Assembly: GCA_049841175.1 (NCBI GenBank)
Contig: JASGHA010000004.1
Coordinates: 38,077 to 102,076 of the forward strand
DNA from: Rubrivivax sp.
Lineage (GTDB): Bacteria; Pseudomonadota; Gammaproteobacteria; Burkholderiales; Burkholderiaceae_C
Reading direction: 5' to 3'
Length of the DNA: 64,000 bases
Shown here: in pieces, positions 1,003-18,273 of the stretch
How the letters are laid out: each line of letters opens with the position of its first letter
Numbering within the stretch: the first letter of the stretch is position 1
Position numbers and translations under genes: made by a program
The notes under the pieces: model-generated
The model's input: the letters and a program-made list of their open reading frames with translations, nothing else
Database searches by the model: none
What the model was told of the DNA's origin: nothing

Positions 1003-1008
1003 TAGAAT
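1003..1008 (+). promoter_or_regulatory. Putative sigma70 -10 box (TAGAAT) of a near-leaderless uORF transcript
   Basis: TAGAAT lies 9 nt before the TTG start, with identical spacing in the paralogous module (14403-14408). Confidence 0.45.
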
Positions 1009-1017
1009 CACCTGATC

Positions 1018-1392
1018 TTGAGCAAGCGCCATCCCCTCGTCCCCTGGCTCGCCGCACTGGTGATCCTGGTGGCGACGCTGGCGCCGTCGGTGTCGCAGGC
1101 GCTGGGGTTCGCTCGCAGCGCCGCAGCGGTGGAGATCTGCACCGCGCAGGGCTCGGTGTGGGTCGACGCCGATACCGGCGACGAGACGGGCGGCCCGGTC
1201 AGCGTTGCTCACTTGTTCGAGCACTGCCCGTTCTGCTCGCTGCACGCTCCGGCGCTGGGCCTGCCACCGGCGCCGCTGGCGCTGCCTGGCGCGCCGCTGG
1301 GCGCCGAGCCGGTGCCGCGCGCCTTCCTGGCGGCCGCCCGCACGCCGCACGCCTGGGTCACGGCCCAACCGCGCGCACCGCCGCGGGTCTGA
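1018..1392 (+). CDS. DUF2946 family CruR-like regulatory uORF (CxxC, C-terminal RAPP arrest motif)
   Basis: N-terminal hydrophobic helix, EICT, HCPFCSLH and the ending QPRAPPRV; lies directly upstream of a TonB-dependent receptor. Confidence 0.85.
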   Translation: MSKRHPLVPWLAALVILVATLAPSVSQALGFARSAAAVEICTAQGSVWVDADTGDETGGPVSVAHLFEHCPFCSLHAPALGLPPAPLALPGAPLGAEPVPRAFLAAARTPHAWVTAQPRAPPRV

Positions 1393-1480
1393 ACGACCCG
1401 CTGACGCGCCGCTGCGGCCGTCACGCCTTCCGCACCGGGCATCCCGGCCCGCCCCGTCCAGACCGTCCGTCGGCAGTGGC
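1393..1480 (+). promoter_or_regulatory. Conserved post-uORF leader element (hairpin plus C-rich tract)
   Basis: ccgctgacgcgccgctgcggccgtcacgccttccgc...tcccggcccgcc is shared with 14799-14885; contains the hairpin TGACG-C-GCCGC-T-GCGGC-CGTCA. Confidence 0.5.
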
Positions 1481-1590
1481 CTCGCTGCCGCGACCGTTCA
1501 GGGCGCGGTGCGACCGAATGTCGTTCGCCGGCCCCTTGCGTCCCCGTACCGCCGCCGACGGCTCCTTCTCAAAATATCTCGAAGCCACCC

Positions 1591-3765
1591 ATGAAAAATA
1601 CCAAGTTCACTGCCGCAGCCCCTCGCCGGTCTGTGCTGAGTGCCGCTCTGACTGCTGCGCTCTGTTCGGGCGCCTGGGCTCAGGACATTCAGCAACTGCC
1701 GACGGTGACGGTTTTCGGAGAGCGCTTGTCACCTTTTGGCAGTTCGCTCAACGGGGATAACCTGGGCAGCCGGCGGTTTGCCACCAACGATACCGCCGCG
1801 TTGCTCGAAGGTACTCCCGGGGTCAGCCTCTATACCGGCGGCGGCGTCTCCAGCCTTCCCGTCATCAATGGCCTGGGCGACGATCGTCTGAAGATTACGG
1901 TGGACGGCATGAGCATCACCTCGGCCTGCCCCAACCACATGAATCCCGCCTTGTCCTACATCGATCCGGCGGCCGTCGCACAACTCAACGTCTACGCCGG
2001 CATCGTTCCCGTGAGCCAAGGCGGCGACAGCATCGGCGGCGCCATCGTGGTGAAGTCCGCACCGCCGGTTTTCGCCCAGCCGGGCGAAGGGCTCAAGACC
2101 TCCGGGGGCGTCAGCGCATTCCATCGCAGCAATGGCGGCGTGAACGGCGTCAGCGTTCAGGCGAATGCCGCGAGCGAGAAATTCGCCATCGGCTATGTCG
2201 GCAACACGGTCGAGGCCGGCAACTACGAGGACGGGAATGGGCGGGAACTCGCGGCCAGCCGCTACAAGGTGCACAACCATGCGCTGAACTTTGCTGCGCT
2301 CTCCGGTTCGGATCTGTGGACGGCCGCCATCGGTTTTCAAGACATCCCTTACCAGGGTTATCCGAATCAATCGATGGACATGACGTCCAACAAGAGCCTG
2401 TCGATCAACATCGGCTACGCCGGGACGTTCGACTGGGGCGCCCTCGAAGCCCGTGTCTTCCGTCAGCGCGTCCGTCACAAGATGGACGTCCTGCCGGACA
2501 AGGCGGAAGCCGCCGGTTTCGCCGCCGCGGATTCCTACATGCCCATGGACACCCGCGCTGTCGACCTCGGCTATTCGCTCGTCGGCACCGTGACGCTCGA
2601 TGGCGGCCAGGTCGCGAGATTCGGCCACGAGTTCCACCGCTACACCCTGGACGACTGGTGGCCGCCTCTGGCGGGCTCCGGTGCGATGGAGCCCGACACC
2701 TTCTGGAACGTCAAGGACGGGCGGCGCGACCGCCTGGCCTTGTTCTCCGAACTGGACACGAAGATCGACGACAGGTGGTCGACCCAGATCGGCGCGCGCG
2801 TTGAACGCGTGGCGATGAACACAGGTGACGTCCAGGGTTACTACGACGCGACTGCGCCGTATGGCGATGCCTACGAGTCGGATGCTGCGGCCTTCAATGC
2901 GAAGAGCCACAAGCGCAGCGACTGGAATCTCGATTTGACCGCTTCCGCGCGCTATGTGCGCAGCGACCGGGAAACCTACGACCTGGGTTTCTCGCGGAAG
3001 ACCCGATCACCCAATCTGCACGAGCGCTATACCTGGTCCAGCGAAGCGATGATGGCCGGCCTGATGAACAACTGGTTCGGCGACCTCAACTCCTACGTCG
3101 GGAATCTGAATCTCAAGCCCGAAGTGGCTTACAGCCTGAAGGCCAGCGCTGATTGGCACGATGCCGCCCGCCAGGATTGGCAACTCAAGGTGGTGCCCTT
3201 CTTCACCTATGTCCACGACTACATCAACGCGACCCCGAACACGTCGTCGAACATGTACAACATGAGCGGCCTCGTCGGGCGCAAGTCCCTGACCTTTGCC
3301 AACCAGGATGCCCGGCTGTACGGGATCGACGTCGCCGCCAGAAAATATCTGGGGAAAGCCGGTGGTGATTGGACGATGCGCGCTGCCGTAAACTACACGC
3401 GAGGCAAGACGACGGCCGGCGACAATCTCTACAACATCATGCCGCTGAACGCTCGGGTGGCCGTCGACCACGCCCTCGAAGCTTGGTCGAACTCGCTTGA
3501 AGCGGTGCTCGTGCGTGCCAAGAAGGACGTCAGCGAAGTGCGCGCCGAGCAAGCGACCGCCGGGTATGCGATCGTGAATTATCGAGGTAGTTACAAGTTC
3601 AGCGAGACCGTCCGACTGGACGCCGGCATCGATAACCTGCTGAATCGGCAATACGATCTGCCGCTGGGCGGGCTGGAATATGCCAGCGCCAGCATGACGA
3701 GCGCTCCTCAGCCGGTGCGCGCGATGGGTCGCTCGTTCAACGTCGGGCTCACGGTCAGCTTCTGA
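1591..3765 (+). CDS. TonB-dependent receptor, putative copper receptor (OprC/NosA-like)
   Basis: Signal peptide, TonB-box-like TVTVFG, plug motif ITSACPNHMNP (CxxxM), C-terminal GIDNLLNRQY...GRSFNVGLTVSF ending in Phe. Confidence 0.85.
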   Translation: MKNTKFTAAAPRRSVLSAALTAALCSGAWAQDIQQLPTVTVFGERLSPFGSSLNGDNLGSRRFATNDTAALLEGTPGVSLYTGGGVSSLPVINGLGDDRLKITVDGMSITSACPNHMNPALSYIDPAAVAQLNVYAGIVPVSQGGDSIGGAIVVKSAPPVFAQPGEGLKTSGGVSAFHRSNGGVNGVSVQANAASEKFAIGYVGNTVEAGNYEDGNGRELAASRYKVHNHALNFAALSGSDLWTAAIGFQDIPYQGYPNQSMDMTSNKSLSINIGYAGTFDWGALEARVFRQRVRHKMDVLPDKAEAAGFAAADSYMPMDTRAVDLGYSLVGTVTLDGGQVARFGHEFHRYTLDDWWPPLAGSGAMEPDTFWNVKDGRRDRLALFSELDTKIDDRWSTQIGARVERVAMNTGDVQGYYDATAPYGDAYESDAAAFNAKSHKRSDWNLDLTASARYVRSDRETYDLGFSRKTRSPNLHERYTWSSEAMMAGLMNNWFGDLNSYVGNLNLKPEVAYSLKASADWHDAARQDWQLKVVPFFTYVHDYINATPNTSSNMYNMSGLVGRKSLTFANQDARLYGIDVAARKYLGKAGGDWTMRAAVNYTRGKTTAGDNLYNIMPLNARVAVDHALEAWSNSLEAVLVRAKKDVSEVRAEQATAGYAIVNYRGSYKFSETVRLDAGIDNLLNRQYDLPLGGLEYASASMTSAPQPVRAMGRSFNVGLTVSF

Positions 3766-3813
3766 GCGCCGTTTCAACGGCCTGAACGAGTTCGCCCCGG
3801 CCCGCGAAGGCTT

Positions 3814-3891
3814 CTGCCGCGCAAGCGCTTCTCGATGGGCGAGGCCGACGAGAAGCGCTTCTATCTCGAAGCGCGCCGCATCCTGCCGTAG
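3814..3891 (+). repeat. 78-bp direct repeat, copy 2 (orphan duplicate of the DUF1015 3' end)
   Basis: 74 of 78 bases identical to 896-973, including the stop codon. Confidence 0.95.
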
Positions 3892-3894
3892 CGC

Positions 3895-4515
3895 TCAGCC
3901 CGGCGCGTGCTCGCGGTGCGGCGCCAGGCGCTGCAGCTCGTCGGGCAGGCGCTGCTGCAGCGCCGCGGCGGCGAACACCTGGCCGCCGTGGGCATGCGCG
4001 AAGCTGGCGGCATCGCCCTGGCTCGCGAAGGCCGGCAGGTTCAGCCGGCGCATCGGCCCGGCGGCGGTCGAGCCGTGCACGAAATGCGCCCGCGCCAGCG
4101 GCAGCCAGCCGCGGCCGTCGTGGGCCTGCACCCAGACGCCGGCGATGTCCTCGCGCCGGCGCCCGCGTGCGTGGCGCGGCACGGCCTGCAGGTAGTGGAA
4201 CAGGCACAGCGGCGAGTCGGTGAAGTGCGCGTGGCCGTCGGCGTAACGCACCTCGCTGGCCCAGCGCGGCCAGCGGGCGGCATACATGCCGCAGACGGGG
4301 CAGCGCGCTTCGGCCGGCACCGCGGCCGGGCGCTCGGGCGTGGCGACGTCCAGCCTCTCGGGCGCCCAGGTCGGCGCGCTGATGCAGACCTCGCCCGGGC
4401 CGTCGTCGCCGGCGTCGGCGGCCGGCTGACGTTCACGCCGCGCCCAGGCGGCGGCGCCCATGCCGGCGCAGGCGGCCAGCGCGGCGGCGGCCAGCAGGCG
4501 GCGGCGGGAGCACAT
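3895..4515 (-). CDS. nosL: NosL family copper chaperone, second paralogue (CPVCGM type)
   Basis: ATG at 4515 (MCSRRRLLAAAALAAC); motifs RCPVCGM, FTDSPLCLFHY, FVHGS...GPM...PAF; last gene of the nos operon. Confidence 0.75.
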   Translation of the reverse strand: MCSRRRLLAAAALAACAGMGAAAWARRERQPAADAGDDGPGEVCISAPTWAPERLDVATPERPAAVPAEARCPVCGMYAARWPRWASEVRYADGHAHFTDSPLCLFHYLQAVPRHARGRRREDIAGVWVQAHDGRGWLPLARAHFVHGSTAAGPMRRLNLPAFASQGDAASFAHAHGGQVFAAAALQQRLPDELQRLAPHREHAPG

Positions 4516-5066
4516 CACATGCGGCCGTCGTGGCGCACGCCGCCCGACAGGTCCACGTCCTCGGCCTTGATCGCGGCGAAGGCCAGCACCTTGCCGCCGT
4601 TCTTCGTCGCGAAGGCCTGGGCGTCGGCGACGTTGGCGAAGCCGGCCGAGGTCGGCCCCATCGAGCCATGTTTGCGGCTGCCGAGCACGAAGGTCGCGGT
4701 CTTGGCATCGATCCAGTGGCCGACCGGGCGCTCCCAGTCGGCCTGGGCCATGTCCTGCACCCAGGCGGCGGCCACCGGGCGCACCTGCTCGGGCGCGATC
4801 AGCGTCGACAGCAGCTCGGTGGCGTCGCAGAACCAGACGGTCTGGTCGCTGTCCTTGTAGCGCAGCTGGCCCTTGGGGCCGCCGTAGTCGGCCAGCAGCA
4901 TGCCGTCGAGCGCGCAGCTGGTCTTGGCGTCGGCCTCGATCGGCGCCAGCGCGGCACCGGAGCTGCCGCCGCGGCTGCAGGCGCCCAGCCCGACGGCCAG
5001 CAGGCCGGCGCAGCCGCACAGCAGGCGGCGGCGGGTGAGGGCGGTTTGAAGAGTCGATTCGGTCAC
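4515..5066 (-). CDS. nosL: Nitrous oxide reductase accessory lipoprotein NosL
   Basis: GTG start overlapping the nosY stop; lipobox LGAC; CALDGMLLADYGGPKGQ, FVLGSRKHGSMGP. Confidence 0.9.
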   Translation of the reverse strand: MTESTLQTALTRRRLLCGCAGLLAVGLGACSRGGSSGAALAPIEADAKTSCALDGMLLADYGGPKGQLRYKDSDQTVWFCDATELLSTLIAPEQVRPVAAAWVQDMAQADWERPVGHWIDAKTATFVLGSRKHGSMGPTSAGFANVADAQAFATKNGGKVLAFAAIKAEDVDLSGGVRHDGRM

Positions 5067-5890
5067 GGCTTGAACCTCCAGGCCGCCGCGGCCAGCGGCA
5101 GCACGATCCAGACACACATCGCCCCGCCCAGCCGCCAGGGGTCGGCCAGCGCGGGCGGCACGACGCTCGCCAGCCCGTAGAGGCGGCGCACGTCGTCCAG
5201 CGAGAACACGTTGAGCACGCGGAACACGTCCGCCGGGTTGGCCAGCAGCAGCCAGGCCGCGAAGTCGCCGCCCCATTCGCCGCCCGAGGCCACCAGCAGG
5301 CCCAGCAGCACGAGGTCGAAGACGAGCACGAAGACGAACCACAGCGCGATCGCCAGCCCCGAGGCCTGGGCGCGGTCGCGCGCCAGCACCGACACGAGCG
5401 TCGCCAGGCTCAGGAAGGACAGGCCCAGCAGCACGGCGCTGAAGACGAAGCCGCCGTAGTGCAGCAGCGCGGCGTCGCCGAAACGCTGCACCAGCACGAC
5501 GGCGACGACGGCGAAGCCGGCGCAGGTCGACAGCGCCAGCGCCGCGGCCAGGCCGGCGAACTTGCCGACCAGCAGCTCCAGCCGCGTGATCGGCAGCGAC
5601 AGCAGCAGGTCCAGCGAGCCGCGCTCGCGCTCGCCGACGATGGCGTCGAAGCCCAGCAGCAGCGCGATCAGCGGCACCAGGTAGATCACCAGGCTGACCA
5701 GGCTGGCGATCGTCAGCTCCAGGCTGCGCGGGCCGATCTGGCCTTGCGCCGCCGAGCCGAAGTACGTGATGGCCAGCGATAACACGGTGAACACCACCGC
5801 GACGACCAGCACCCAGCGGTTGCGCAGCCGGTCGCGGAACTCCTTGGCGGCCAGCGCGCCGGCCTGGCGGAACTCGAAACGCGCGTTCAT
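5063..5890 (-). CDS. nosY: NosY ABC transporter permease
   Basis: AKEFRDRLRNRW, LLGFDAIVGERERGSLDLLLSLP, multiple transmembrane helices; ATG at 5890. Confidence 0.92.
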   Translation of the reverse strand: MNARFEFRQAGALAAKEFRDRLRNRWVLVVAVVFTVLSLAITYFGSAAQGQIGPRSLELTIASLVSLVIYLVPLIALLLGFDAIVGERERGSLDLLLSLPITRLELLVGKFAGLAAALALSTCAGFAVVAVVLVQRFGDAALLHYGGFVFSAVLLGLSFLSLATLVSVLARDRAQASGLAIALWFVFVLVFDLVLLGLLVASGGEWGGDFAAWLLLANPADVFRVLNVFSLDDVRRLYGLASVVPPALADPWRLGGAMCVWIVLPLAAAAWRFKP

Positions 5891-5892
5891 GC

Positions 5893-6861
5893 CTACACCT
5901 CCTGGCGGACGGTGGCGGACACCAGCACCGGCAGCTCGCCGCCTTGCTGCAGCCCGAAATAGACGTCTTCCAGCGACGGCTCGCGCACGACGAGGTCGTC
6001 CAGCCCGGCGCCGGCCAGGCGCGCCAGCAGCGCCATCTTCTGCGGCCGCGGGCACTCCAGCAGCGCCCGCTCGCCGTCGCGGTTGACGAAACGCACGCCC
6101 GGGGGCAGCGAGCCTGCGAGCCCGGCGATGGCCGCCGCTACGCCGCTGATCTGCACCCGCAGCGGTTGCGCCGAACGTTCGCGCAGCGCCTGCACGCTGC
6201 CCTGGGCGCGCACGCGGCCCTGGGCCAGCAGCGCCAGCGCGTCCACACGCTTCTGCAGCTCGGCCAGGATGTGCGAGCTGACGACGATCGTCGTGCCGCG
6301 CGCGCGCAGCGCATCCAGCTCGGCATAGAACTCGCGCACCGCCAGCGGGTCCAGGCCGGTGGTCGGTTCGTCCAGCAGCAGCAGCTTCGGCTCCCCGAGC
6401 AGCGCCTGGGCGAAACCGAGCCGCTGGCGCATGCCCTTGGAGTAACTGCGCACCGGGCGCGAGGCCGCGGCGCCCAGGCCCACGCGTTCCAGCAGCGGCG
6501 CGCATTCGGCCGCCGGTGCGCCCTTCAGCCGGGCGAACAGCCGCATCGTCTCGACGCCGCTCAGGTTGTCCCAGAGCACCAGGTTCTCGGGCAGGTAGCC
6601 GATGCTGCGCCGCACCTCGCGGAACCGGCGGCCGCCGACGTCGACGCCGCCCACCGTCACGCGGCCGGCGCTGGGTTGGATCAGGCCGAGCAGCAGCTTG
6701 AACAAGGTGCTCTTGCCGGCGCCGTTGTGGCCGACGAGCGCGAACAGCGTGCCCGCCGGCACGGCGAGCTCGATGCCGTCGAGCGCCTGCACCGTCTGGC
6801 TGCGGCCGCGGTAGCACTTGCCGACGCCGTGCAGCGCCAGCGCTTCAGCGTGTGCGTTCAA
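5893..6861 (-). CDS. nosF: NosF ABC transporter ATP-binding protein
   Basis: Walker A GHNGAGKST, signature YSKGMRQR, Walker B LLLLDEPT; lies between nosD and nosY. Confidence 0.92.
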   Translation of the reverse strand: MNAHAEALALHGVGKCYRGRSQTVQALDGIELAVPAGTLFALVGHNGAGKSTLFKLLLGLIQPSAGRVTVGGVDVGGRRFREVRRSIGYLPENLVLWDNLSGVETMRLFARLKGAPAAECAPLLERVGLGAAASRPVRSYSKGMRQRLGFAQALLGEPKLLLLDEPTTGLDPLAVREFYAELDALRARGTTIVVSSHILAELQKRVDALALLAQGRVRAQGSVQALRERSAQPLRVQISGVAAAIAGLAGSLPPGVRFVNRDGERALLECPRPQKMALLARLAGAGLDDLVVREPSLEDVYFGLQQGGELPVLVSATVRQEV

Positions 6862-8095
6862 TCCATTCGCTCCCGTTAGTGTGGCCCGGCGTCATCGCCG
6901 GGCGGTCGTCGACGACGCTGGGCACACGCAGCACCGGAAACTGCTGCGCCAAGAGGCGCAGCGCCTGCACCGCCGGGCTGCCCATCAGCAGGCGCAGCGC
7001 CGGGTGGCGGTTCTGCAGCCGGTCGACGACGTCGTTGGCCTCGTAGGGCACGTCGCCGACGCCGTCGCCGTCGCGGTCCCAGCCGAGGTAGTTGCTGAAG
7101 AAGTTGCCGCCGTTCCAGTGCTCGTCGCGGCCGCCGACGTAGCGCACCTGCTCGCGGTTGGCGATGAAGTCGTTGTGCTCGACGGTGTTGCGTGTCGAGC
7201 CGGCGGCCAGGTGCACGCCGACGGCGTTGCCGACGATCAGGTTGCGGCGCAGCGTCGCGTACTCGACGTCGTAGATGAAGAAGCCGCGCTCGTTGCCGGC
7301 GACGACGTTGTCCTCGACGACCGAGTCCTGCAGCGTGCGCAGCATGATGCCGTGGTCGCTGTTGCCCCAGGTGCGGTTGCGGCGCACCACCTGGTCGCGC
7401 ACCTCCATCAGCGCCAGCCCGCCGCGGTTGGCCCAGCTGTCGTTGTCCTCCCACAGGTTGCGGTAGGAGTTCATGTAGTGCGTGCCGTAGCGGCTGTGGT
7501 GCAGCCGGTTGCCGCGGAACACGGCGTCGTGCGAGACGTCGACGTACAGCGCGTCTCGCACGAAGCTGATCTGGTTGCCGACGATCTGCGCGCGCAGCGT
7601 GTTGTAGAGCTGCACGCCGTTGCCGCGCTGCGCCGAGTTCAGGTCGCGCAGGCCGGTGATGACGTTGTCCTCGACGCGCACGTTGTTGGCCTTCTCGATC
7701 CACAGCCCGAAGAGGTTGTAGGTCAGGTCGCAGCGGCGGATGACGGCGCGGTGCGCTCCCGGCTGCACGTAGATGCCGGCCTGCTGGTCGACGAGGCTGT
7801 GGCCCGAGTCGCGCACGATCAGGCCCTCGATCGTGACGTCGGTGGCGCGGATGCGGATGACGTCGCCGCGCTGGCCGCCGGAGATCGTCGGCCGGTCGAC
7901 GCCGCGCAGCGTCAGCGGCTTGTCGATGACGAGCTGGGTGTCGTAGCGCCCGCGCTCGATCTCGACGACGTCGCCGGCCGCGGCGCGCGCCACCGTGCCG
8001 GCCAGGTCGCCGCCCGGCGCCACGCGCCAGGTCGCGGCCCAGGCCGGCGCCGTGACCAGCGCCACGGTGCAGGCGAGCGCGCGAAGGTGTTTCAT
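6845..8095 (-). CDS. nosD: NosD periplasmic maturation protein (beta-helix)
   Basis: ATG at 8095 overlaps the nosR stop; RGNGVQLYN, RYGTHYM, GNFFSNYLGWDRDGDGVGDVPY. Confidence 0.93.
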   Translation of the reverse strand: MKHLRALACTVALVTAPAWAATWRVAPGGDLAGTVARAAAGDVVEIERGRYDTQLVIDKPLTLRGVDRPTISGGQRGDVIRIRATDVTIEGLIVRDSGHSLVDQQAGIYVQPGAHRAVIRRCDLTYNLFGLWIEKANNVRVEDNVITGLRDLNSAQRGNGVQLYNTLRAQIVGNQISFVRDALYVDVSHDAVFRGNRLHHSRYGTHYMNSYRNLWEDNDSWANRGGLALMEVRDQVVRRNRTWGNSDHGIMLRTLQDSVVEDNVVAGNERGFFIYDVEYATLRRNLIVGNAVGVHLAAGSTRNTVEHNDFIANREQVRYVGGRDEHWNGGNFFSNYLGWDRDGDGVGDVPYEANDVVDRLQNRHPALRLLMGSPAVQALRLLAQQFPVLRVPSVVDDRPAMTPGHTNGSEWIERTR

Positions 8096-10698: not shown

Positions 10699-10712
10699 CT
10701 CGGCACGAATGG

Positions 10713-10743
10713 AAAAAACCCCGCCCGCGGGTGCAGGCGGGGT
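10713..10743 (-). terminator. Intrinsic terminator-like hairpin between nosZ and nosR
   Basis: Minus strand reads ACCCCGCC-loop-GGCGGGGT followed by a T-tract, about 15 nt before the nosR ATG. Confidence 0.6.
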
Positions 10744-10795
10744 GACAAGACTCTCCTGAGGACGTTTTCCGGAGAGAGGGACGGGCGACGAGGCG

Positions 10796-12718
10796 TCAGG
10801 CCTCGACGATCATGCGGGTGCGCATCTCCAGGTGCAGCGCATGGCAGAAGTGCGTGCAGTAGCACCAGTAGATGCCCGGCTTGCCGGCCGTGAACGTCAC
10901 CGACTTCGTCTCCTGCGGGTTGACGATGAAGTTGACGTTGTGGTTCGGAATCGCGAAGCCGTGCGTCAGGTCCTCGACCTTGTCCAGGTTGGTGAGGATC
11001 AGCGTCACCTCGTCGCCGGACTTCACCTTGAACTCGCGCAGGCTGAACGCCGGCGCCTGCGAGGTGAGCTTGACGGTGACCTTCCTGCCGTTGCGCGTGA
11101 CGCCGGACTCCTTCGGGTCCTTCACCGCGATCGGCGATTCGTCCAGCGTGTAGACCTGCTTGGGCTTGACGATGTCGCGCTTGAAGATGATGAAGTCGTG
11201 CGGCTCGCCGCGCACCGGGTGGTCGGCCAGCAGCACCATCTTGTCGCCCGAGATGTCGATGAACTGCTCGTTCTCCGGGTGCAGCGGGCCCACCGGCAGG
11301 AAGCGGTCCTTGCTGAACTTGCAGCCCACCGCGAGGTACTTGCCGTCGGCGGCCGCGGTCTCGCTGTGCGTCGCGCTCAGGTGGCCCGGCTGGTAGTGCA
11401 CGTCCAGGCGGTCGACGACGTACTTGGCGCTCTTGTCGCCCTGGTGGAACTTGATCGCGGCGGCGACGTTCCACTTGACAATCTGGCTGTCCAGGAACAG
11501 CGTCGTGTAGGCGTTGCCGCGGCCGTCGAAGGCGGTGTGCAGCGGGCCCAGGCCCAGCTCGACTTCGGCGACGATGACGTCGTCGAGCTTCTCGAGCTTG
11601 CCGTCGAACCAGTCCAGCACCTTGGCCAGTTCGATGACCGTGCCGGTGGGCGAGAGCTTGCCCGAGCAGATGAAGTACTTGCCGTCGGGCGAGGCGTTGA
11701 CGCCGTGCGGGTTCTTCGGCACCGAGACGTAGCCGGAGAGCGCGGTCTTCGGGTCCTGGTTGGCTTCACGCGTGGCGTCGACCACCGGCACCTTGCTGTC
11801 GCCGATGGTCTTGAACTTGCCGGCCTTGACCGCGGCCTCGATGCGCGCGACGTGGAAGAACACGCAGGCGTCGCGCTCGGCGGCCATCATGTCCTCGTAG
11901 TGCACGCCGCCTTCGGTGTTGTACTGGTTGGTCGCCGCGAGCTTGCCGTTGTACGAGGTGGCGACGAGGTCGCAGTTGCCGTCGATCAGCGCCTGCCAGC
12001 GCACTTCCATCGTCTCGGCGTCGACGCAGCTGAAGATCGAGCGGTACTTGCTGCCGTCCTCGATCGCCGCGTTGGGCAGCGGGATGCCGAACTCGCCGCC
12101 GCAGAACACGCGCGTCGTGTAGTTGATCGCCGGATCGACCGGGTCGCGCTTGTCCGGGAAGATGCCGTGGAAGCCCTGGACGTTGGGCAGCTGCGTGATC
12201 TTGTCGCAGACGAAGTAGTCCAGGCGGATGCGCGCGACGCGGGCGTTGATCTTGTTGTTGATCCACGCGTAGCGGCCGTCGTAGTTGCCGTCCTTGTACG
12301 AGGCGTGCGTGTGGTGGGTGTCGGCCACCGTGTAGCGCAGCGAGCCGTCGGGCTTGCGGCCCATGACGTCCTTGGACTCGTTGGTGACCCCCCAGCCGAC
12401 CAGCGCGTCGGGGCAGAACACCGGGATGCGGTGGATCTCGCGGCCCGAGGGCAGGCCCAGCACGCGCATGTCGCCGGTGTGGCCGCCGCTCCACAGACCG
12501 TAGTAGGCGTCGAGTTCGCCCGGGGCGAGGTGCGTCGCGTTGGCGGCACCGGAATGGCTGCCGGCAGCAGCCGAGGCCGGCGCGGCCGCTCCGGCGGCAC
12601 CGCTCTTGTCGGTGCAGGCGCCGACGGCCACCGCCAGGCCCGACAGGGCCGCGGTGTTCAGGAAGCGGCGCCGCGCCGGCACGTCGGCCGCGGCTTCGGG
12701 GGTCTTGTCGTGTTGCAT
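10796..12718 (-). CDS. nosZ: Nitrous-oxide reductase, clade I (Tat-exported)
   Basis: Twin-arginine RRRFL; CuZ histidines (DTHHTH, FHG, PKNPHG, GPLHT, EPHD); CuA motif CTHFCHALHLEM. Start placed at ATG 12718. Confidence 0.97.
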   Translation of the reverse strand: MQHDKTPEAAADVPARRRFLNTAALSGLAVAVGACTDKSGAAGAAAPASAAAGSHSGAANATHLAPGELDAYYGLWSGGHTGDMRVLGLPSGREIHRIPVFCPDALVGWGVTNESKDVMGRKPDGSLRYTVADTHHTHASYKDGNYDGRYAWINNKINARVARIRLDYFVCDKITQLPNVQGFHGIFPDKRDPVDPAINYTTRVFCGGEFGIPLPNAAIEDGSKYRSIFSCVDAETMEVRWQALIDGNCDLVATSYNGKLAATNQYNTEGGVHYEDMMAAERDACVFFHVARIEAAVKAGKFKTIGDSKVPVVDATREANQDPKTALSGYVSVPKNPHGVNASPDGKYFICSGKLSPTGTVIELAKVLDWFDGKLEKLDDVIVAEVELGLGPLHTAFDGRGNAYTTLFLDSQIVKWNVAAAIKFHQGDKSAKYVVDRLDVHYQPGHLSATHSETAAADGKYLAVGCKFSKDRFLPVGPLHPENEQFIDISGDKMVLLADHPVRGEPHDFIIFKRDIVKPKQVYTLDESPIAVKDPKESGVTRNGRKVTVKLTSQAPAFSLREFKVKSGDEVTLILTNLDKVEDLTHGFAIPNHNVNFIVNPQETKSVTFTAGKPGIYWCYCTHFCHALHLEMRTRMIVEA

Positions 12719-12814
12719 GTGACTCGGAAGGTCAGGGTGGGGCGGCTCCCGACGACCGACGGTCATCACCTTGGAGCGCGAAGCGGATGCTGCGGATTTG
12801 GTGAATTCATCGCC

Positions 12815-12828
12815 TTAAACGAGTTCAA
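12815..12828 (-). promoter_or_regulatory. Possible FNR/DNR-type box in the nosZ/cytochrome c divergent promoter
   Basis: Minus strand reads TTGAA-CTCG-TTTAA against the consensus TTGAT-N4-ATCAA (imperfect match). Confidence 0.35.
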
Positions 12829-12919
12829 GGATTTCCGGAGGGCCCCGGGCTATGGTTCGCGCCCACACCGCCTCGACGGCGGCCCCGCTGCCCGCAGCGC
12901 CCTCCCGACACCGACCTCC

Positions 12920-13360
12920 ATGACTCTCGCCCGCACCCTGATCGCCACCGTCGTCCTCGCCGCGCTCGCCGCCTGCGGCCGCCAGGAACCGCCGGCCGCG
13001 CCGGCCGCCGCCCCCGAGGCCTCGACGCCCGCGCCGGCCACCGCCACCTCCTCCACCGCCCCGGCGACGCCGGCCGCGACCGAAGTCGCCGCCGCGCCGG
13101 CGGCCAACGACACCGGCAAGTCGACCTACGGCAAGGTCTGCGTGATGTGCCACGGCGCCGGCATCGGCGGCGCGCCGAAGTTCGGCGACAAGGCCGCCTG
13201 GGGCCCGCGCATCGCGCAAGGCCAGGACACGCTGTACAAGCACGCGCTCGAAGGCTTCACCGGCAGCCAGGGGATGATGCCGGCCAAGGGCGGCGGCGCG
13301 ACGCTGAGCGACGACGACGTCAAGGCCGCCGTCGACTACATGGCGGCAGCCGCGAAGTGA
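12920..13360 (+). CDS. Cytochrome c5-like lipoprotein (NosC-type electron donor)
   Basis: Lipobox LAAC, Ala/Pro/Thr-rich linker, CVMCH heme motif, GAPKFGDKAAW...MPAKGG. Confidence 0.88.
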   Translation: MTLARTLIATVVLAALAACGRQEPPAAPAAAPEASTPAPATATSSTAPATPAATEVAAAPAANDTGKSTYGKVCVMCHGAGIGGAPKFGDKAAWGPRIAQGQDTLYKHALEGFTGSQGMMPAKGGGATLSDDDVKAAVDYMAAAAK

Positions 13361-13365
13361 GTGCC

Positions 13366-14394
13366 ATGCCGTCGCTGACGCCGAACGCCGTCACCCGGCG
13401 CCGGCTGCTGCTCGGCGGCGGCCTGGTCATGGCCACGCCGCTGGCGGCGCAGGCGATGCCGGCCGCCGCGGCCGGGCACGAATCGCGGGTGCTGATGGGC
13501 ACGCGCATCGACCTCACCGTCGTCGACGCCGACCCGGCGCGCCGCACCGCGGCGCTGGCCGCGGCCTGGCAGCGCATGGCGGCCGACGCGGCGCGCTGGA
13601 GCCGCTTCGACGGCGACAGCGAGCTGGCGCGGCTGGCGGCCGCGGCGGGCACGCAGGCCGTGGGCGTCGGCCGCGACACCGCCGAGCTGCTGCGCGGCGC
13701 GCGCCGCTGCGCCGAGGCCACCGGCGGCTGTTTCGACCCCACCGTCGGCGCCTACGAAGACTGGCATTTCGGCGACGGTGCCGAGGCCCGTGTGCCCGCC
13801 GCCGCGCGGCTGGCGGCCCAGCGCCGGCACGTCGGCTTCGAGCATCTGGAGATCGAGCGCGACGCGCCGCGTGCGCGCCTGGCGCGCGCCGGGATGCGGC
13901 TGGACCTGGGTGGCTTCGCCAAGCTGCCGGTGCTGGCCGGCGGGCTGCAGGCGCTGCAGCAGGCCGGCGTGCGCCGTGCGATGGTCAACGGCGGCGGCGA
14001 CGTGCTGTGCCTGGGGCAGGGCGATGACCCGGCCTGGCGCATCGGCGTGCGCGACCCGGCCCAGCCTTCGCGGCTGCGCGGCGTCGTCGCGCTGCGTTCG
14101 GGCGTCGTCGCGTCCTCGGGCGACTACGAGCGTTTCTTCATCGACGCCCAGGGCCGGCGCCAGCACCACATCCTGGACCCGCGCAGCGGCTGGCCGACAC
14201 GCGGCCTGCACGGCGTGACGCTGGTGGCCGAGCAGGTCGAGGCCGTCAACGGCCTGGGCGCGGCGATCATGGTCGGCGGCGTGCGCCGGGCGCAGAGCTG
14301 GCTGGCCGGCCGCGCCGGGGTCGATGCGCTGGCCGTCGGCGACGACGGCGCCTGGTTCGCCGGGCGCATGGCCGAGCGCCTCGCTGCGCTCTGA
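13366..14394 (+). CDS. nosX: NosX/ApbE FAD:protein FMN transferase
   Basis: Tat-like TRRRLLL; VLMGT, FDPTVG, DLGGFAK, NGGGD, SSGDYER, HHILDPRSG. Confidence 0.9.
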   Translation: MPSLTPNAVTRRRLLLGGGLVMATPLAAQAMPAAAAGHESRVLMGTRIDLTVVDADPARRTAALAAAWQRMAADAARWSRFDGDSELARLAAAAGTQAVGVGRDTAELLRGARRCAEATGGCFDPTVGAYEDWHFGDGAEARVPAAARLAAQRRHVGFEHLEIERDAPRARLARAGMRLDLGGFAKLPVLAGGLQALQQAGVRRAMVNGGGDVLCLGQGDDPAWRIGVRDPAQPSRLRGVVALRSGVVASSGDYERFFIDAQGRRQHHILDPRSGWPTRGLHGVTLVAEQVEAVNGLGAAIMVGGVRRAQSWLAGRAGVDALAVGDDGAWFAGRMAERLAAL

Positions 14395-14417
14395 GTGCGC
14401 CCTAGAATCGCTTGACC

Positions 14418-14798
14418 TTGAGCAAGCGCGGCCGCCACCCATTCGCCCTCTGGATCGCCGCGCTGGTGATCCTGATGGCGTCGCTCGCGCCGTCGGTGTC
14501 GCAGGCGCTGGGTTTTGCGCGCAGCGCCGCGGCGGTGGAGATCTGCACCGCGCACGGCGCGGTCTGGGTCGACGCCGACACCGGCGACGAGACCGGCGGC
14601 GCGGTGAGCGTCGGCCACCTGTTCGAGCACTGCCCCTTCTGTTCGCTGCATGCCCCGGCGATGGGCCTGCCGCCGGCGCCGCTGGCCTTGCCCGGCGCGC
14701 CGGCGGGCGCCGAGCCGCTGCCACGTGCCTTCCTCGCGGCCGCCCGCACGCCGCACGCCTGGGTCACGGCCCAACCCCGCGCACCGCCGCGGGCCTGA
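14418..14798 (+). CDS. DUF2946 family CruR-like regulatory uORF, second copy
   Basis: Closely paralogous to 1018-1392; HCPFCSLH, ending QPRAPPRA. TTG at 14418 was chosen because TAGAAT lies at 14403-14408. Confidence 0.85.
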   Translation: MSKRGRHPFALWIAALVILMASLAPSVSQALGFARSAAAVEICTAHGAVWVDADTGDETGGAVSVGHLFEHCPFCSLHAPAMGLPPAPLALPGAPAGAEPLPRAFLAAARTPHAWVTAQPRAPPRA

Positions 14799-14885
14799 AC
14801 GAAAACCGCTGACGCGCCGCTGCGGCCGTCACGCCTTCCGCCCTGGGCCTCCCGGCCCGCCCGTCCTGGCCGTCGGTCGGCCGGG
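14799..14885 (+). promoter_or_regulatory. Conserved post-uORF leader element, second copy
   Basis: Near-identical to 1393-1480. Confidence 0.5.
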
Positions 14886-14935
14886 GCTCGTCGCCGTGCC
14901 CGCCGAGGGCTGCGGCGCCACCGGATTTCGTTCCC

Positions 14936-17140
14936 ATGTTCTGCTCCCGTACCCCCATCGCGGCCGCCGTGCTGCTGCTCGCCGCCACCGCGTCCGCCCA
15001 GGACGCCGCCGACACCTCGACCAGCCCCGACCAGATCGTCATCACCGGCACGCGTGACCGCTTGCACCTCGCCGAACCCGGCAGCACCGGCAGCCGCCTC
15101 GGCCTGACGGCGCGCGAGACACCGGCCACCGTGCAGACGCTGACCCAGGAGGAGATCCAGGCCAAGGGCCTGCGCACCGCACGCGAGGCCTTCGCCGAGA
15201 TCCCCGGCGTCATCGCCGGCAACGTGCCCGGCAACCCGGCCGCAGTGATGATGCGCGGCTTCTCCGGCAACACCGTCTCCATCCTGCAGGACGGCGTGCG
15301 TGTCTCGACCTCGACCATCGTGCAGCGCGACACCAACACCTGGCACTTCGAGCGCATCGAGGTGCTGAAGGGCCCGGCCTCGGTGCTCTACGGCGAAGGC
15401 GCGCTCGGCGGCGTCATCAACAAGGTGACGCGCAAGCCGACGCTCGACGGCAACCACGTCGACACGCTGGCGAGCGTCGGCAGCTTCGGCACGACGACGG
15501 TGGCCGTCGGCGCCAACGTCAAGCTGTCGGACAGCGTGGCGTTGCGCGTCGATGCCAGCCAGCTCGACTCGGACAGCCTCTACGACGTCGAGGACAACCG
15601 CACACGCTCGCGCGGCGCCACGGCCAGCATGCTGTTCGAGCCCGGCGAGCGGCTGTCGGTGCTGCTCGCCGTCGACCACTTCAAGGACCGCTACGACAGC
15701 ACCTACGAGGGCCTGCCGCTGGTGCAGGCCGCGGTCGCGCGCGACCGCAGCGGCATCGTGCAGAGCGCCAACGGCCTGGTCATCGACCGCTCGCTGCGCC
15801 GGCGCAACTACAACCCCGACGGCGCGTACTCCGGCGCCGAGGACACGACGCTGCGCTCGCACATCGACTGGAAGTTCGCCGCGGGCTGGACCTCCAGCAC
15901 CGACCTGACGGCCTACACCGCGCACCGCGCCTTCGTGTACAGCTATGTGCAGAGCTTCGTCGCCGCCAGCGACGCCTTCCCCGATGGCAGCCTCGCGCGA
16001 TCGGCGCAGCGCTTCTATCACGACCACGACTTCTGGAACGTGCGCAGCGCGTTGGCGCACGACGGCCTCGTCGCCGGGCGGCGCAACCGCTTCACCGTCG
16101 GCGCCGAAGTCAACGACACCGACTTCTCCAGCCTGCGCCAGATCGCGCCGACCAGCGTGCTGGCCGCCGTCGACCCCTGGGCACCGCAAGTCGGCAGCTT
16201 CCCGAGCGCCGACAGCGTCTACACCGCCACCAACCTGAACTACGACTCGAAGCTGAAGACGCGTTCGCTGTTCGCCGAGGACGCCTTCAACCTGACACCG
16301 GCCTGGCTGCTGGTGGCCGGCCTGCGCCACGACGACATCGACCTGCAGCGTGTCGTCACCGACTACAACGCCACGCCCGACACCGTGCAGCGCTCGCGCC
16401 CGCACTACAGCCCGCTGTCCTGGCGCGTCGGCACGACCGTCGATCTGTCGAAGGCGACGACGTTGTACGCGCAAGTCACCTCGGCGGCGGTGCCGGTGTC
16501 GACGATGCTGCTGCAGTCGATCAAGAACACCAGCTTCAAGCTCAGCCAGGGGCGTTCGGCCGAAGTCGGCTTCAAGTCCACGGCCTTCGACGGCCGGCTG
16601 ACACTGACCGGCGCGCTCTACCAGATCGTGCTGCACGACATCCTGACGCGCGACCCGGCCGACCCGTCGTTGACGGTGCAGGGCGGCACGCAGTCGTCCA
16701 AGGGGCTGGAGCTGGTGGCCGCGGCGGCGCTGACGCCGGCGCTGTCGGCCGGGGCCGGTGCCGGATACGTCGACGCGCAGTACGACAAGCTGATCGAAGC
16801 CGGCGGCGCGGTGCGCAGCGGCAACCGCTCGATCAACACGCCGGCGACGACCGCCAACGCCTGGCTGGCCTACGCGCTGCCCGGCCTGCCGCTGAGGCTG
16901 AGCGGTGCGCTGCACCACGCCTCGGGCTTCTACACCGACACCGCCAACTCGATCCACGTCGACGGCCACACGACGCTGGACGCCGCCGTGGCCTGGCGCA
17001 TCGCGCCCGAGACCACGCTGACGCTGCGCGGCCGCAACCTGACCGACGCCTTCTACGGCGAGTACTCGGGCTATCTGACGACCAACGTCTACATCGGCGC
17101 GCCGCGCAGCGTCGAGCTGTCGCTGACGTCGAAGTTCTGA
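14936..17140 (+). CDS. TonB-dependent receptor (siderophore/metallophore type, BfrG-like context)
   Basis: Signal peptide, QIVITG, plug ERIEVLKGPASVLYG, C-terminal GRNLTD...GAPRSVELSLTSKF. Confidence 0.92.
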   Translation: MFCSRTPIAAAVLLLAATASAQDAADTSTSPDQIVITGTRDRLHLAEPGSTGSRLGLTARETPATVQTLTQEEIQAKGLRTAREAFAEIPGVIAGNVPGNPAAVMMRGFSGNTVSILQDGVRVSTSTIVQRDTNTWHFERIEVLKGPASVLYGEGALGGVINKVTRKPTLDGNHVDTLASVGSFGTTTVAVGANVKLSDSVALRVDASQLDSDSLYDVEDNRTRSRGATASMLFEPGERLSVLLAVDHFKDRYDSTYEGLPLVQAAVARDRSGIVQSANGLVIDRSLRRRNYNPDGAYSGAEDTTLRSHIDWKFAAGWTSSTDLTAYTAHRAFVYSYVQSFVAASDAFPDGSLARSAQRFYHDHDFWNVRSALAHDGLVAGRRNRFTVGAEVNDTDFSSLRQIAPTSVLAAVDPWAPQVGSFPSADSVYTATNLNYDSKLKTRSLFAEDAFNLTPAWLLVAGLRHDDIDLQRVVTDYNATPDTVQRSRPHYSPLSWRVGTTVDLSKATTLYAQVTSAAVPVSTMLLQSIKNTSFKLSQGRSAEVGFKSTAFDGRLTLTGALYQIVLHDILTRDPADPSLTVQGGTQSSKGLELVAAAALTPALSAGAGAGYVDAQYDKLIEAGGAVRSGNRSINTPATTANAWLAYALPGLPLRLSGALHHASGFYTDTANSIHVDGHTTLDAAVAWRIAPETTLTLRGRNLTDAFYGEYSGYLTTNVYIGAPRSVELSLTSKF

Positions 17141-17142
17141 GC

Positions 17143-18273
17143 ATGCAGCGCTGGCGCGGGGTGGTGCGCAAGGCGCACCTGTGGCTGGGCCTGGGTCTGG
17201 GCGGCCTGTTCGCCGTGCTCGGGCTCAGCGGCTCGGTGCTGGTGTTCTACGAGGCGGTGGACGCGGCGCTGCACCCGGAGATCCGCGTGCGCAGCACGCT
17301 GCCGGCGCCGGGCTGGGACTCGCCGGTCTGGGATCAGGCGCTGGCCACCGTGCGCGCGCGCTGGCCCGAGCGCCGCGGCGCCTGGCGCTTCGAGGCCACC
17401 GGCCGGCCCGGGCCGCTGGCGGCGCGCTACCAGCCGCCGGGCGTCGGCCACCACGGCCAACGCATCATGGTCTGGCTGTCGCCCGACGGCCGCCAGGTGC
17501 TGCGCGAAGACGAGTGGGGCCGCTACGCGATGACCTGGCTCTACGACCTGCACATGAACCTGCTGCTCGGCGAAGGCGGCCGCGCCGTCGTCGGCTGGGC
17601 CGGCGTCGCGACGGCCGCGCTGCTGGCCAGCGGGCTCTGGGCCTGGTGGCCACGCGGCAGCTGGCGGCGTGCGCTGCACTTCAAGCGCGAGGCCGAACGC
17701 ACGCGCCGGCTGCGTGACCTGCACAAGATCGCCGGCCTGGCCGGCCTGCCGCTGCTGGCGATGCTGGTCGTCACCGGGGTGATGCTGGCGCTGCCCGACG
17801 AGAGCAACGCGGTGCTGGCGCGCACGCTCGGGCCGGTCACCCAGCCCGGGCCGGTGCGCGCGGCGTCGTCGGGCGAGCCGGTGGGCATCGCCACCGCGCT
17901 GGCCGTCGCGCACCGCGTGATGCCCGCAGGCCGGCTGGCCTGGGTCGAGGCGCCGGGGCCGGGCTTCGGTGCCTACATGGTGCGCGTGCAGCAGCCGGGC
18001 GACCCGAGCTGGCGTTTCCCGCACAGCAGCGTCTGGATCGACCCGGCCAGCGGCGCGGTGCTGGCGGTGCAGGACCGGCAGCGTTTCGGCGCCTCCAACG
18101 TCGTCAACAACTGGCTGCACCCGCTGCACGACGCCTCTGCCGGCGGGCTGTGGCTGCGCGTGCCGGTGGCGCTGGCCGGCCTCGTGCCGGCGCTGCTGCT
18201 GGCCACCGGCGTCTGGCGCTGGGCGCTGCTGCGCCGTGCGCGCCGCGGGGCGCTCAGCCGGCGCGGCGCCTGA
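17143..18273 (+). CDS. PepSY-associated TM helix domain protein
   Basis: AHLWLGL...GLSGSVLVF, LYDLHMNL, RDLHKIAG, WLHPLH; coupled to the receptor gene. Confidence 0.88.
   Translation: MQRWRGVVRKAHLWLGLGLGGLFAVLGLSGSVLVFYEAVDAALHPEIRVRSTLPAPGWDSPVWDQALATVRARWPERRGAWRFEATGRPGPLAARYQPPGVGHHGQRIMVWLSPDGRQVLREDEWGRYAMTWLYDLHMNLLLGEGGRAVVGWAGVATAALLASGLWAWWPRGSWRRALHFKREAERTRRLRDLHKIAGLAGLPLLAMLVVTGVMLALPDESNAVLARTLGPVTQPGPVRAASSGEPVGIATALAVAHRVMPAGRLAWVEAPGPGFGAYMVRVQQPGDPSWRFPHSSVWIDPASGAVLAVQDRQRFGASNVVNNWLHPLHDASAGGLWLRVPVALAGLVPALLLATGVWRWALLRRARRGALSRRGA

Follow-up and report, generated by a model that had tools for sequence, protein, structure and literature searches.

The locus described here raises the question of whether two candidate copper-sensing switches of a single design, standing on either side of the genes for nitrous oxide (N2O) reductase, control copper uptake, and whether they do so for that enzyme. 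N2O reductase is, to our knowledge, the only biological sink known for nitrous oxide, and copper scarcity makes it fail. Rubrivivax gelatinosus is a tractable model in which copper trafficking to the reductase, NosZ, has already been studied. The window analyzed is a stretch of 64,000 nucleotides (nt) of Rubrivivax sp. (assembly GCA_049841175.1, contig JASGHA010000004.1, positions 38,077 to 102,076 of the forward strand), and positions below count from its first letter. Within it, two modules flank the nos cluster, each with a small DUF2946 open reading frame (ORF) followed by the gene for a TonB-dependent receptor. Both small ORFs are probably CruR-type copper-responsive upstream ORFs (uORFs) that head their own outer-membrane copper uptake operons. 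The regulatory principle and both operon types are already published, and the locus joins this known class. What is new is a leader–receptor chimera, an insertion beside nos that is absent from one R. gelatinosus genome, and a family-wide pattern of a −10 box at the start codon.

The reference system is that of Bordetella pertussis, where Bp2923/CruR is a DUF2946 uORF. Stalling at its C-terminal RAPP blocks Rho from a C-rich stretch, and transcription into bfrG and a PepSY_TM gene continues; copper sensed via the CxxC motif frees the stall and leads to Rho-dependent termination in a 162-nt intergenic region (PMC9426467). The spacing between CxxC and RAPP is 45 residues and matters for regulation (PMC9426467). 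The commonest genomic contexts of CruR include operons of CruR with an OprC-type receptor and of CruR with a receptor and PepSY_TM (Roy et al. 2022, PMC9426467). An earlier interpretation of the window, made from its letters alone and called here the sequence-only reading, had set out this literature accurately, and its description of the sequence is right in all details. All sequence-testable features of the Bordetella attenuator are found in both modules.

The two leader ORFs, both on the + strand and starting with TTG, are cruR1 (1018–1392, 124 codons) and cruR2 (14418–14798, 126 codons). The sequence-only reading had taken them as near-duplicate DUF2946 ORFs with CPFC and RAPP motifs, and so they are: the proteins are 88% identical and match Pfam DUF2946 (PF11162) with E values of 9e-24 and 1e-22 (84.9 and 81.6 bits; gathering cut-off 23.7 bits). 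An extra in-frame TTG of cruR2 lies at 14412, and the TTG common to both copies is the one at 14418. Judged by eye, the N-termini are signal-peptide-like, being basic and hydrophobic and ending in SQA-LG. CPFC occupies residues 70–73 of CruR1 and 72–75 of CruR2. RAPP occupies residues 119–122 of CruR1, followed by RV and the stop, and residues 121–124 of CruR2, followed by RA and the stop. The spacer between the two motifs is exactly 45 residues in both proteins, within the allowed range of 45 ± 2. The ORFs are shorter than the 145-residue Bordetella CruR, and two residues follow RAPP here versus three there. When CruR1 and CruR2 are aligned with their relatives the CxxC is invariant, and the C-terminal arrest segment is the best-conserved portion; R[AG]PP followed by two to three residues is found in 32 of 35 Burkholderiales homologues.

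Similarity between the modules is a property of the leader DNA as a whole. It starts 1 nt upstream of a TAGAAT hexamer, spans the uORF, and ends about 140 nt past the stop codons, with 87% identity, far above chance. The homology stops before the two receptor genes, and in module 2 it reaches the ATG of receptor 2. Between cruR1 and cruR2, 26 codon differences are synonymous and 14 non-synonymous. CruR1 residues 67–81 and 102–124 are identical in the two copies, with no codon change in HLFEHCPFCSLHAPA or RAFLAAARTPHAWVTAQPRAPP. The excess of synonymous differences and the unchanged CxxC and arrest segments argue that the peptide is under selection in both copies.

Downstream of the uORFs lie intergenic regions of 198 nt in module 1 (1393–1590, + strand) and 137 nt in module 2 (14799–14935, + strand). 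Both are richer in C than in G, the first being C-rich, and both carry the same hairpin (at about 1400–1424 in module 1), identical in sequence between the copies. Taken in 78-nt windows from mid-uORF onward, the surplus of C over G in the two modules is as much as 24 percentage points. Of the 35 Burkholderiales homologues, 34 have more C than G around the uORF stop, an excess that the 5′ part of the uORF does not show. A terminator scan found no intrinsic terminator in either leader intergenic region, and a search of Rfam at a permissive threshold found no element in either leader. The resemblance to the long, C-rich intergenic region of the Bordetella operon, which likewise lacks an intrinsic terminator, extends to both modules, and intergenic region 1 is likely to be the zone of Rho loading and termination. 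A heptamer, CTGAACG, stands at or just after the uORF stop (1388–1396 in the window) in both modules and in four other loci (L015, L017, L063, and L064), and CTGAAC in a fifth (L019). The leaders that share it are only distantly related and have a GC-rich hairpin 10–15 nt downstream of it. It may serve as a conserved signal for pausing or termination.

Upstream, the −10-like hexamer TAGAAT lies at 1003–1008 and at 14403–14408 (+ strand), and the equal spacing to TTG that had been read from the letters is exactly 9 nt in both modules. The hexamer of module 2 is identical in R. gelatinosus. The pattern is widespread: in 30 of 33 homologues, drawn from many Burkholderiales families, a TANNNT box (for example TAGAAT, TATAAT, TACAAT, or TAAAAT) stands 4–12 nt, mostly 6–9 nt, before a candidate start, with 4.0 such cases expected by chance. 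Several homologues have a reasonable −35 box at 17–19 nt, as judged by eye. Most simply read, this pattern suggests that the box is a promoter −10 element with transcription starting at or just before the start codon, giving a leaderless uORF mRNA. FNR/CRP-like half-palindromes, CTGATCTTGAGCAA (1012–1025) and TTGACCTTGAGCAA (14412–14425), overlap the uORF start codons downstream of TAGAAT, with two mismatches to TTGAT-N4-ATCAA. They may reflect coincidence or a coding constraint; if real, their position is that of a repressor site. A search for FNR-type boxes found no match in the nosZ promoter region.

The receptors behind the two leaders are of different kinds. The sequence-only reading had assigned a different TonB receptor to each module and a PepSY_TM gene to the second. 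Indeed, receptors 1 and 2 are unrelated beyond the TonB-receptor fold (BLASTP E 0.36), and the PepSY_TM gene matches PF03929 with an E value of 6e-48. Receptor 1 (1591–3765, + strand, 724 residues) has six matches among solved structures, all of them variants of Pseudomonas aeruginosa OprC (best 6FOK, E 7e-25). In a HMMER alignment to 6FOK, its C, M, H, and M align to OprC Cys143, Met147, His323, and Met325, so that the CxxxM–HxM copper site is kept. The plug-and-barrel architecture and these four ligands are shared with P. aeruginosa OprC and Pseudomonas stutzeri NosA. The protein is distant from both, with a score against TIGR01778 of 138.4 bits, below the equivalog cut-off of 472.45. As far as alignment can tell, receptor 1 has an OprC/NosA-like copper site but falls outside the curated equivalog. 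OprC itself takes up ionic Cu(I) and Cu(II) (PMC8610252). The oprC gene is likewise preceded by a cruR homologue and is copper-repressed, and NosA has been tied to copper loading of NosZ (PMC8610252).

Receptor 2 (14936–17140, + strand, 734 residues) is of the siderophore-receptor type, with 245 bits against TIGR01783. Its closest solved structure is 9RVQ, matched over the full length with an E value of 4e-87, the next best being 1e-32. This structure is B. pertussis CrtA/BfrG, which imports chelated Cu(II) (PMC12914433); relatives of the PepSY_TM protein are reductases. The gene for the PepSY_TM inner-membrane protein (17143–18273, + strand, 376 residues), the last of operon 2, starts 2 nt after receptor 2. 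A TonB receptor followed by PepSY_TM is also the order of the Bordetella CruR–BfrG/CrtA–Bp2921 operon, and the same order is found in R. gelatinosus. Unlike in Bordetella CrtA, the six proposed ligand-site residues are not conserved: CrtA Y130, W265, E337, Q356, H358, and R395 align to T, E, Y, S, D, and A of receptor 2, in a pairwise HMMER alignment that may be locally misaligned at such divergence. Receptor 2 thus resembles CrtA in operon architecture and not demonstrably in ligand. Two distinct copper-acquisition routes, as had been proposed, remain a fair description of the pair when OprC is set against CrtA as importer of ionic versus chelated copper (PMC8610252, PMC12914433).

Taken with the Bordetella precedent, these features point to the following mechanism. 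Each uORF would be transcribed from a promoter whose −10 element is the TAGAAT placed 9 nt before TTG, and its mRNA would be leaderless or nearly so. We infer that the first ribosome stalls at the C-terminal RAPP. The stalled ribosome would shut Rho out of the uORF's C-rich 3′ part and of the intergenic region, and RNA polymerase would continue into the receptor gene. With copper present, CPFC in the nascent chain, fixed 45 residues before RAPP, would bind copper and release the stall; the ribosome would then terminate, Rho would load, and transcription would end before the receptor. Copper shortage would in this way turn on two importers, an OprC/NosA-like receptor for ionic copper and, for chelated copper, a CrtA/BfrG-like receptor together with a PepSY_TM protein that is probably a reductase.

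A handful of observations weigh against this account. UUG, with which the Rubrivivax uORFs start, is a poor initiator of leaderless translation in E. coli, and a sigma-70 scan found no −35 box with TAGAAT in either Rubrivivax copy. The post-stop hairpin, present in both copies and in many relatives, is no more stable than shuffled sequence, either overall (mean z −1.2) or in the two modules (z −0.1 to −0.3). In B. pertussis the start of transcription mapped by rapid amplification of cDNA 5′ ends lies 45 bp before the presumed start codon (PMC9426467), a misfit with a leaderless mRNA there; that 45-nt 5′ untranslated region differs from the TTG placed 9 nt after a −10-like box in Rubrivivax. 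If the uORF mRNA is leaderless, the published CruR model would need refining. Finally, the related CutF of Rhodobacter capsulatus has the opposite polarity, with copper inducing the stall (PMC9973294).

CutF is the precedent for the first of two alternatives, in which copper binding induces the stall and the stall turns the downstream gene on. It is a DUF2946 protein that acts in just this way (PMC9973294), and the CutF–CutO system belongs to the same superfamily of copper-sensing nascent peptides as the leaders described here. Such a polarity is very improbable at this locus. CutF-type leaders sit a few nt before a cuproenzyme gene that is on with copper, whereas the leaders here gate importers, which are expected to be repressed by copper. 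The intergenic regions of 137–198 nt resemble the 162 nt of CruR, whereas the stem-loop spacers of CutF-type systems are shorter than 100 nt, and no stem-loop masking a receptor ribosome-binding site is seen in either leader. RAPP and its 45-residue spacing are exactly as in CruR. The second alternative, scarcely more probable, holds that the main role of the DUF2946 products is that of mature copper-binding proteins after export, such as periplasmic partners of the receptors, and not that of leaders acting in cis. Their signal-peptide-like N-termini and conserved Cys and His residues would suit such a role. Cells contain no detectable CruR or CutF product, and both work in cis alone (PMC9426467, PMC9973294), which argues against it, as does the pattern of conservation: beyond the stop, the non-coding stretch is nearly as well conserved as the ORF (80% versus 87% between the copies), and the part of the protein that is conserved most is the arrest segment.

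The two modules have different histories. Module 1 is flanked by an 83-nt direct repeat on the + strand, whose left copy (891–973) is the 3′ end of an intact DUF1015 gene and whose right copy (3809–3891) is a remnant of a DUF1015 3′ end, 3 nt from the stop of the second nosL gene (nosL2). The two copies are 93% identical, and the left one matches the DUF1015 3′ end of R. gelatinosus at 80 of 83 positions. Among database sequences, the leaders' nearest relative is annotated as R. gelatinosus, and the nos cluster recurs in the R. gelatinosus genome GCA_015751865.1, its proteins being 92–96% identical. The order of cytochrome c, ApbE, DUF2946, receptor 2, and PepSY_TM matches as well; the receptor 2 orthologue is 98% identical over the part of the gene within the compared locus, and CruR2 shares 92% identity with its orthologue in the corresponding position. 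Module 1 is missing there, and its place is an empty site, at which the DUF1015 gene ends 3 nt from the nosL2 stop. Because R. gelatinosus has an empty site and the 83-nt DUF1015 copy lies exactly at its position, the comparison indicates that module 1 is a 2.9-kb insertion bracketed by an 83-nt duplication, at the 3′ end of DUF1015 next to nosL. An insertion bracketed by repeats is the pattern left by a single crossover with circular DNA. Alternatively, module 1 may be of greater age, and R. gelatinosus may have lost it when the two repeats recombined. Within the DUF1015 remnant, at 3823–3860, lies a perfect 12-bp inverted repeat, AAGCGCTTCTCG / CGAGAAGCGCTT, with a 14-nt loop. Lying between receptor 1 and nosL2, which converge, it may stop transcription from both sides, and a terminator scan found no canonical terminator between these two genes.

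The leader and the receptor of module 1 also differ in their affinities. CruR1 groups with CruR2 and other Sphaerotilaceae-type leaders (51–57% identity), and it is the outgroup to CruR2 and the R. gelatinosus orthologue (25–26 synonymous differences versus 10). A 96%-identical receptor 1 with the same leader occurs in two uncultured samples. The next relatives of receptor 1 are only 75–78% identical, come from metagenomes and Methylophilus sp. 5 (75–77% in the latter), and are preceded by DUF2946 leaders only 28–29% identical to CruR1. Since the leader is Rubrivivax-type while the relatives of its receptor carry such dissimilar leaders, module 1 is, on the evidence of these affinities, a chimera, in which a foreign OprC-like receptor follows a Rubrivivax-type leader. 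Its leader is thus unlike that of the closest relatives of receptor 1, and its receptor gene adjoins the nos cluster, two points on which it departs from OprC and NosA. A leader joined to a foreign-type receptor argues that the leader works as a unit, and it supports the earlier proposal that one leader design has been reused, which the near-identical leaders and unrelated receptors bear out.

The resident copy is module 2, which adjoins nosX in R. gelatinosus too. A faint continuation of leader homology for about 30 nt into the coding sequence of receptor 2, which would prove the direction of copying, was marginal (25 of 3000 random windows score equally) and is not claimed. Loci pairing an OprC-like module with a receptor/PepSY_TM module as direct neighbors, under dissimilar DUF2946 leaders, occur in a metagenome (L059:5207-14175) and in Methylophilus sp. 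5 (L060:1606-10287). The order in the former is DUF2946, OprC-like receptor, DUF2946, TonB, receptor, PepSY_TM, and ExbBD, with a dedicated TonB–ExbB–ExbD set. The pairing of two import routes is recurrent in betaproteobacteria, and the shared leader is special to Rubrivivax; two near-identical leaders in one genome are a further difference from Bordetella.

The whole genome holds four DUF2946 genes, every one of them 5′ of a TonB receptor, which makes four separately gated TonB receptors in one genome. The third and fourth leaders (C7:58355-58657 on the − strand and C8:677674-677991 on the + strand) have their own CxxC contexts and variant tails, ...LGAQGPPLPL* and ...PARGPPARRAG*. One of them heads a 775-residue receptor and the other a receptor with MbnP behind it.

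The two modules enclose a complete clade I nos cluster on the − strand (3895–12718). It comprises nosZ (10796–12718; TIGR04244, 976 bits), nosR (8092–10698; NF046105), nosD (6845–8095), nosF (5893–6861), nosY (5063–5890), nosL (4515 to about 5069; Pfam NosL), and nosL2 (3895–4518; Pfam NosL). Two tandem NosL paralogues (Pfam NosL, E 3e-43 and 1e-17) thus close the operon, and the same pair is present in R. gelatinosus. Divergent from nosZ, on the + strand, are genes for a cytochrome c (12920–13360) and for an ApbE/NosX flavin transferase (13366–14394).

The stop of nosX lies 8 nt before the TAGAAT of module 2 and 24 nt before the start of its uORF. This adjacency also occurs in R. gelatinosus, in one isolate assembly, and in metagenomes. 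The suggestion that module 2 is co-transcribed with nos genes has some grounds: the gap is short, a terminator scan found no terminator after nosX, and contigs from two metatranscriptomes, of a relative with 94–97% identity, span nosX into the uORF, although such contigs are weak evidence, as they may contain DNA and carry no transcript ends. Co-transcription with nosX is possible; on the other side stands the −10-like box that module 2 has of its own. If the uORF is read from a leaderless mRNA, a read-through transcript from nosX would carry its UUG internally and without a Shine–Dalgarno sequence. Such a transcript might go untranslated and be terminated by Rho, which would make co-transcription of module 2 with nos unproductive.

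Whether the modules serve NosZ in particular was addressed in 81 nosZ-positive Burkholderiales genomes, namely 28 among 151 genomes of the family and 53 across the rest of the order, with proximity set at a DUF2946 gene no more than 15 kb from nosZ. Such a gene is found in 4 of the 28 within the family and in none of the 53 outside it. A receptor-type CruR module near nosZ is confined to 2 of the 81, this genome and one other (G090), and the DUF2946–nos synteny survey that the sequence-only reading had called for thus gives little backing to its view. In G090 an operon of CruR, receptor, and YcnI converges on nos, with nnrS and two U32-peptidase genes between it and nosX. The two remaining genomes of the family (G129, L005:10562-10870, − strand; G026, L006:8873-9151, + strand) have, directly 5′ of nosZ, a divergent DUF2946 uORF with a signal peptide, a CALC motif, and either ...PPARGPPPYL* or ...PPARAPPF... 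as its tail; that of G129 ends about 24 nt before the nosZ ATG. This CutF-like arrangement, which nosZ lacks in the present genome, could make NosZ synthesis copper-dependent. It was considered as a new class and rejected as such, since the link between DUF2946 genes and N2O reductase genes, with CutF-like genes immediately 5′ of nosZ/nosR, was already noted in general terms (Ozturk et al. 2023, PMC9973294). Elsewhere, closer CruR relatives at 55–58% identity head other copper operons away from nos. A genome of the same genus (G138), in which both the nos cluster and the CruR context are of another kind, was uninformative, and a scan of genome contigs with CruR2 added one distant locus at 49% identity, which does not help with synteny.

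The claim that the arrangement feeds NosZ maturation is therefore unsupported as it was first put. It competes with the view that the modules are general copper-acquisition operons, for example for cbb3 or caa3 oxidases, and that their place beside nos is a lineage-specific accident and not a dedicated supply; this view has about an even chance of being right. It accords with the rarity of the arrangement, including the three unrelated genes that intervene in the only other family member to have it, and with the absence of module 1 from an R. gelatinosus genome whose nos cluster is otherwise identical. The known role of CrtA/BfrG is in copper supply for haem-copper oxidases (PMC12914433), and OprC occurs in non-denitrifiers. 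On a part for NosA in maturing NosZ the findings conflict: NosZ showed no defect in one nosA knockout, and NosA was first defined by copper loss in NosZ (PMC8610252). The latter observation speaks for a dedicated supply, and so do the direct contact between module 2 and nosX in all Rubrivivax-like sequences seen, the arrival of the inserted module 1 at the edge of the nos cluster as well, and the uptake by OprC of Cu(I), the form favored in anoxia. A specific role in NosZ maturation is possible on this balance, with the chances somewhat against it. The bracketing of nos by two modules is a Rubrivivax peculiarity, and selection for copper supply in denitrification may lie behind it, though the comparative data do not show this.

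A broader and rather doubtful proposal can be built on the portability of the leaders. CruR-type leaders would be self-contained, portable cassettes of about 530 bp, in which a −10 box is followed by a leaderless uORF and then by a spacer where Rho loads. The uORF would lack a Shine–Dalgarno sequence and begin right at the 5′ end of the transcript. Translation, and with it protection from Rho, would be reserved for transcripts that start at the promoter of the cassette itself, and read-through from upstream (nosX) would be aborted. Insulation of this kind, if true, would let the same cassette function after fusion to a foreign OprC-like receptor beside nos. In Rubrivivax the cassettes would then make up a copper-limitation regulon for ionic and chelated copper where NosZ is made.

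For the biology of Rubrivivax, the locus would place two importers under the same type of nascent-peptide switch beside nos, with one module in some strains and two in others. It thereby makes testable the contributions of OprC/NosA-type and CrtA-type import to N2O reduction, the portability of the leader cassette, and the leaderless translation of its uORF.

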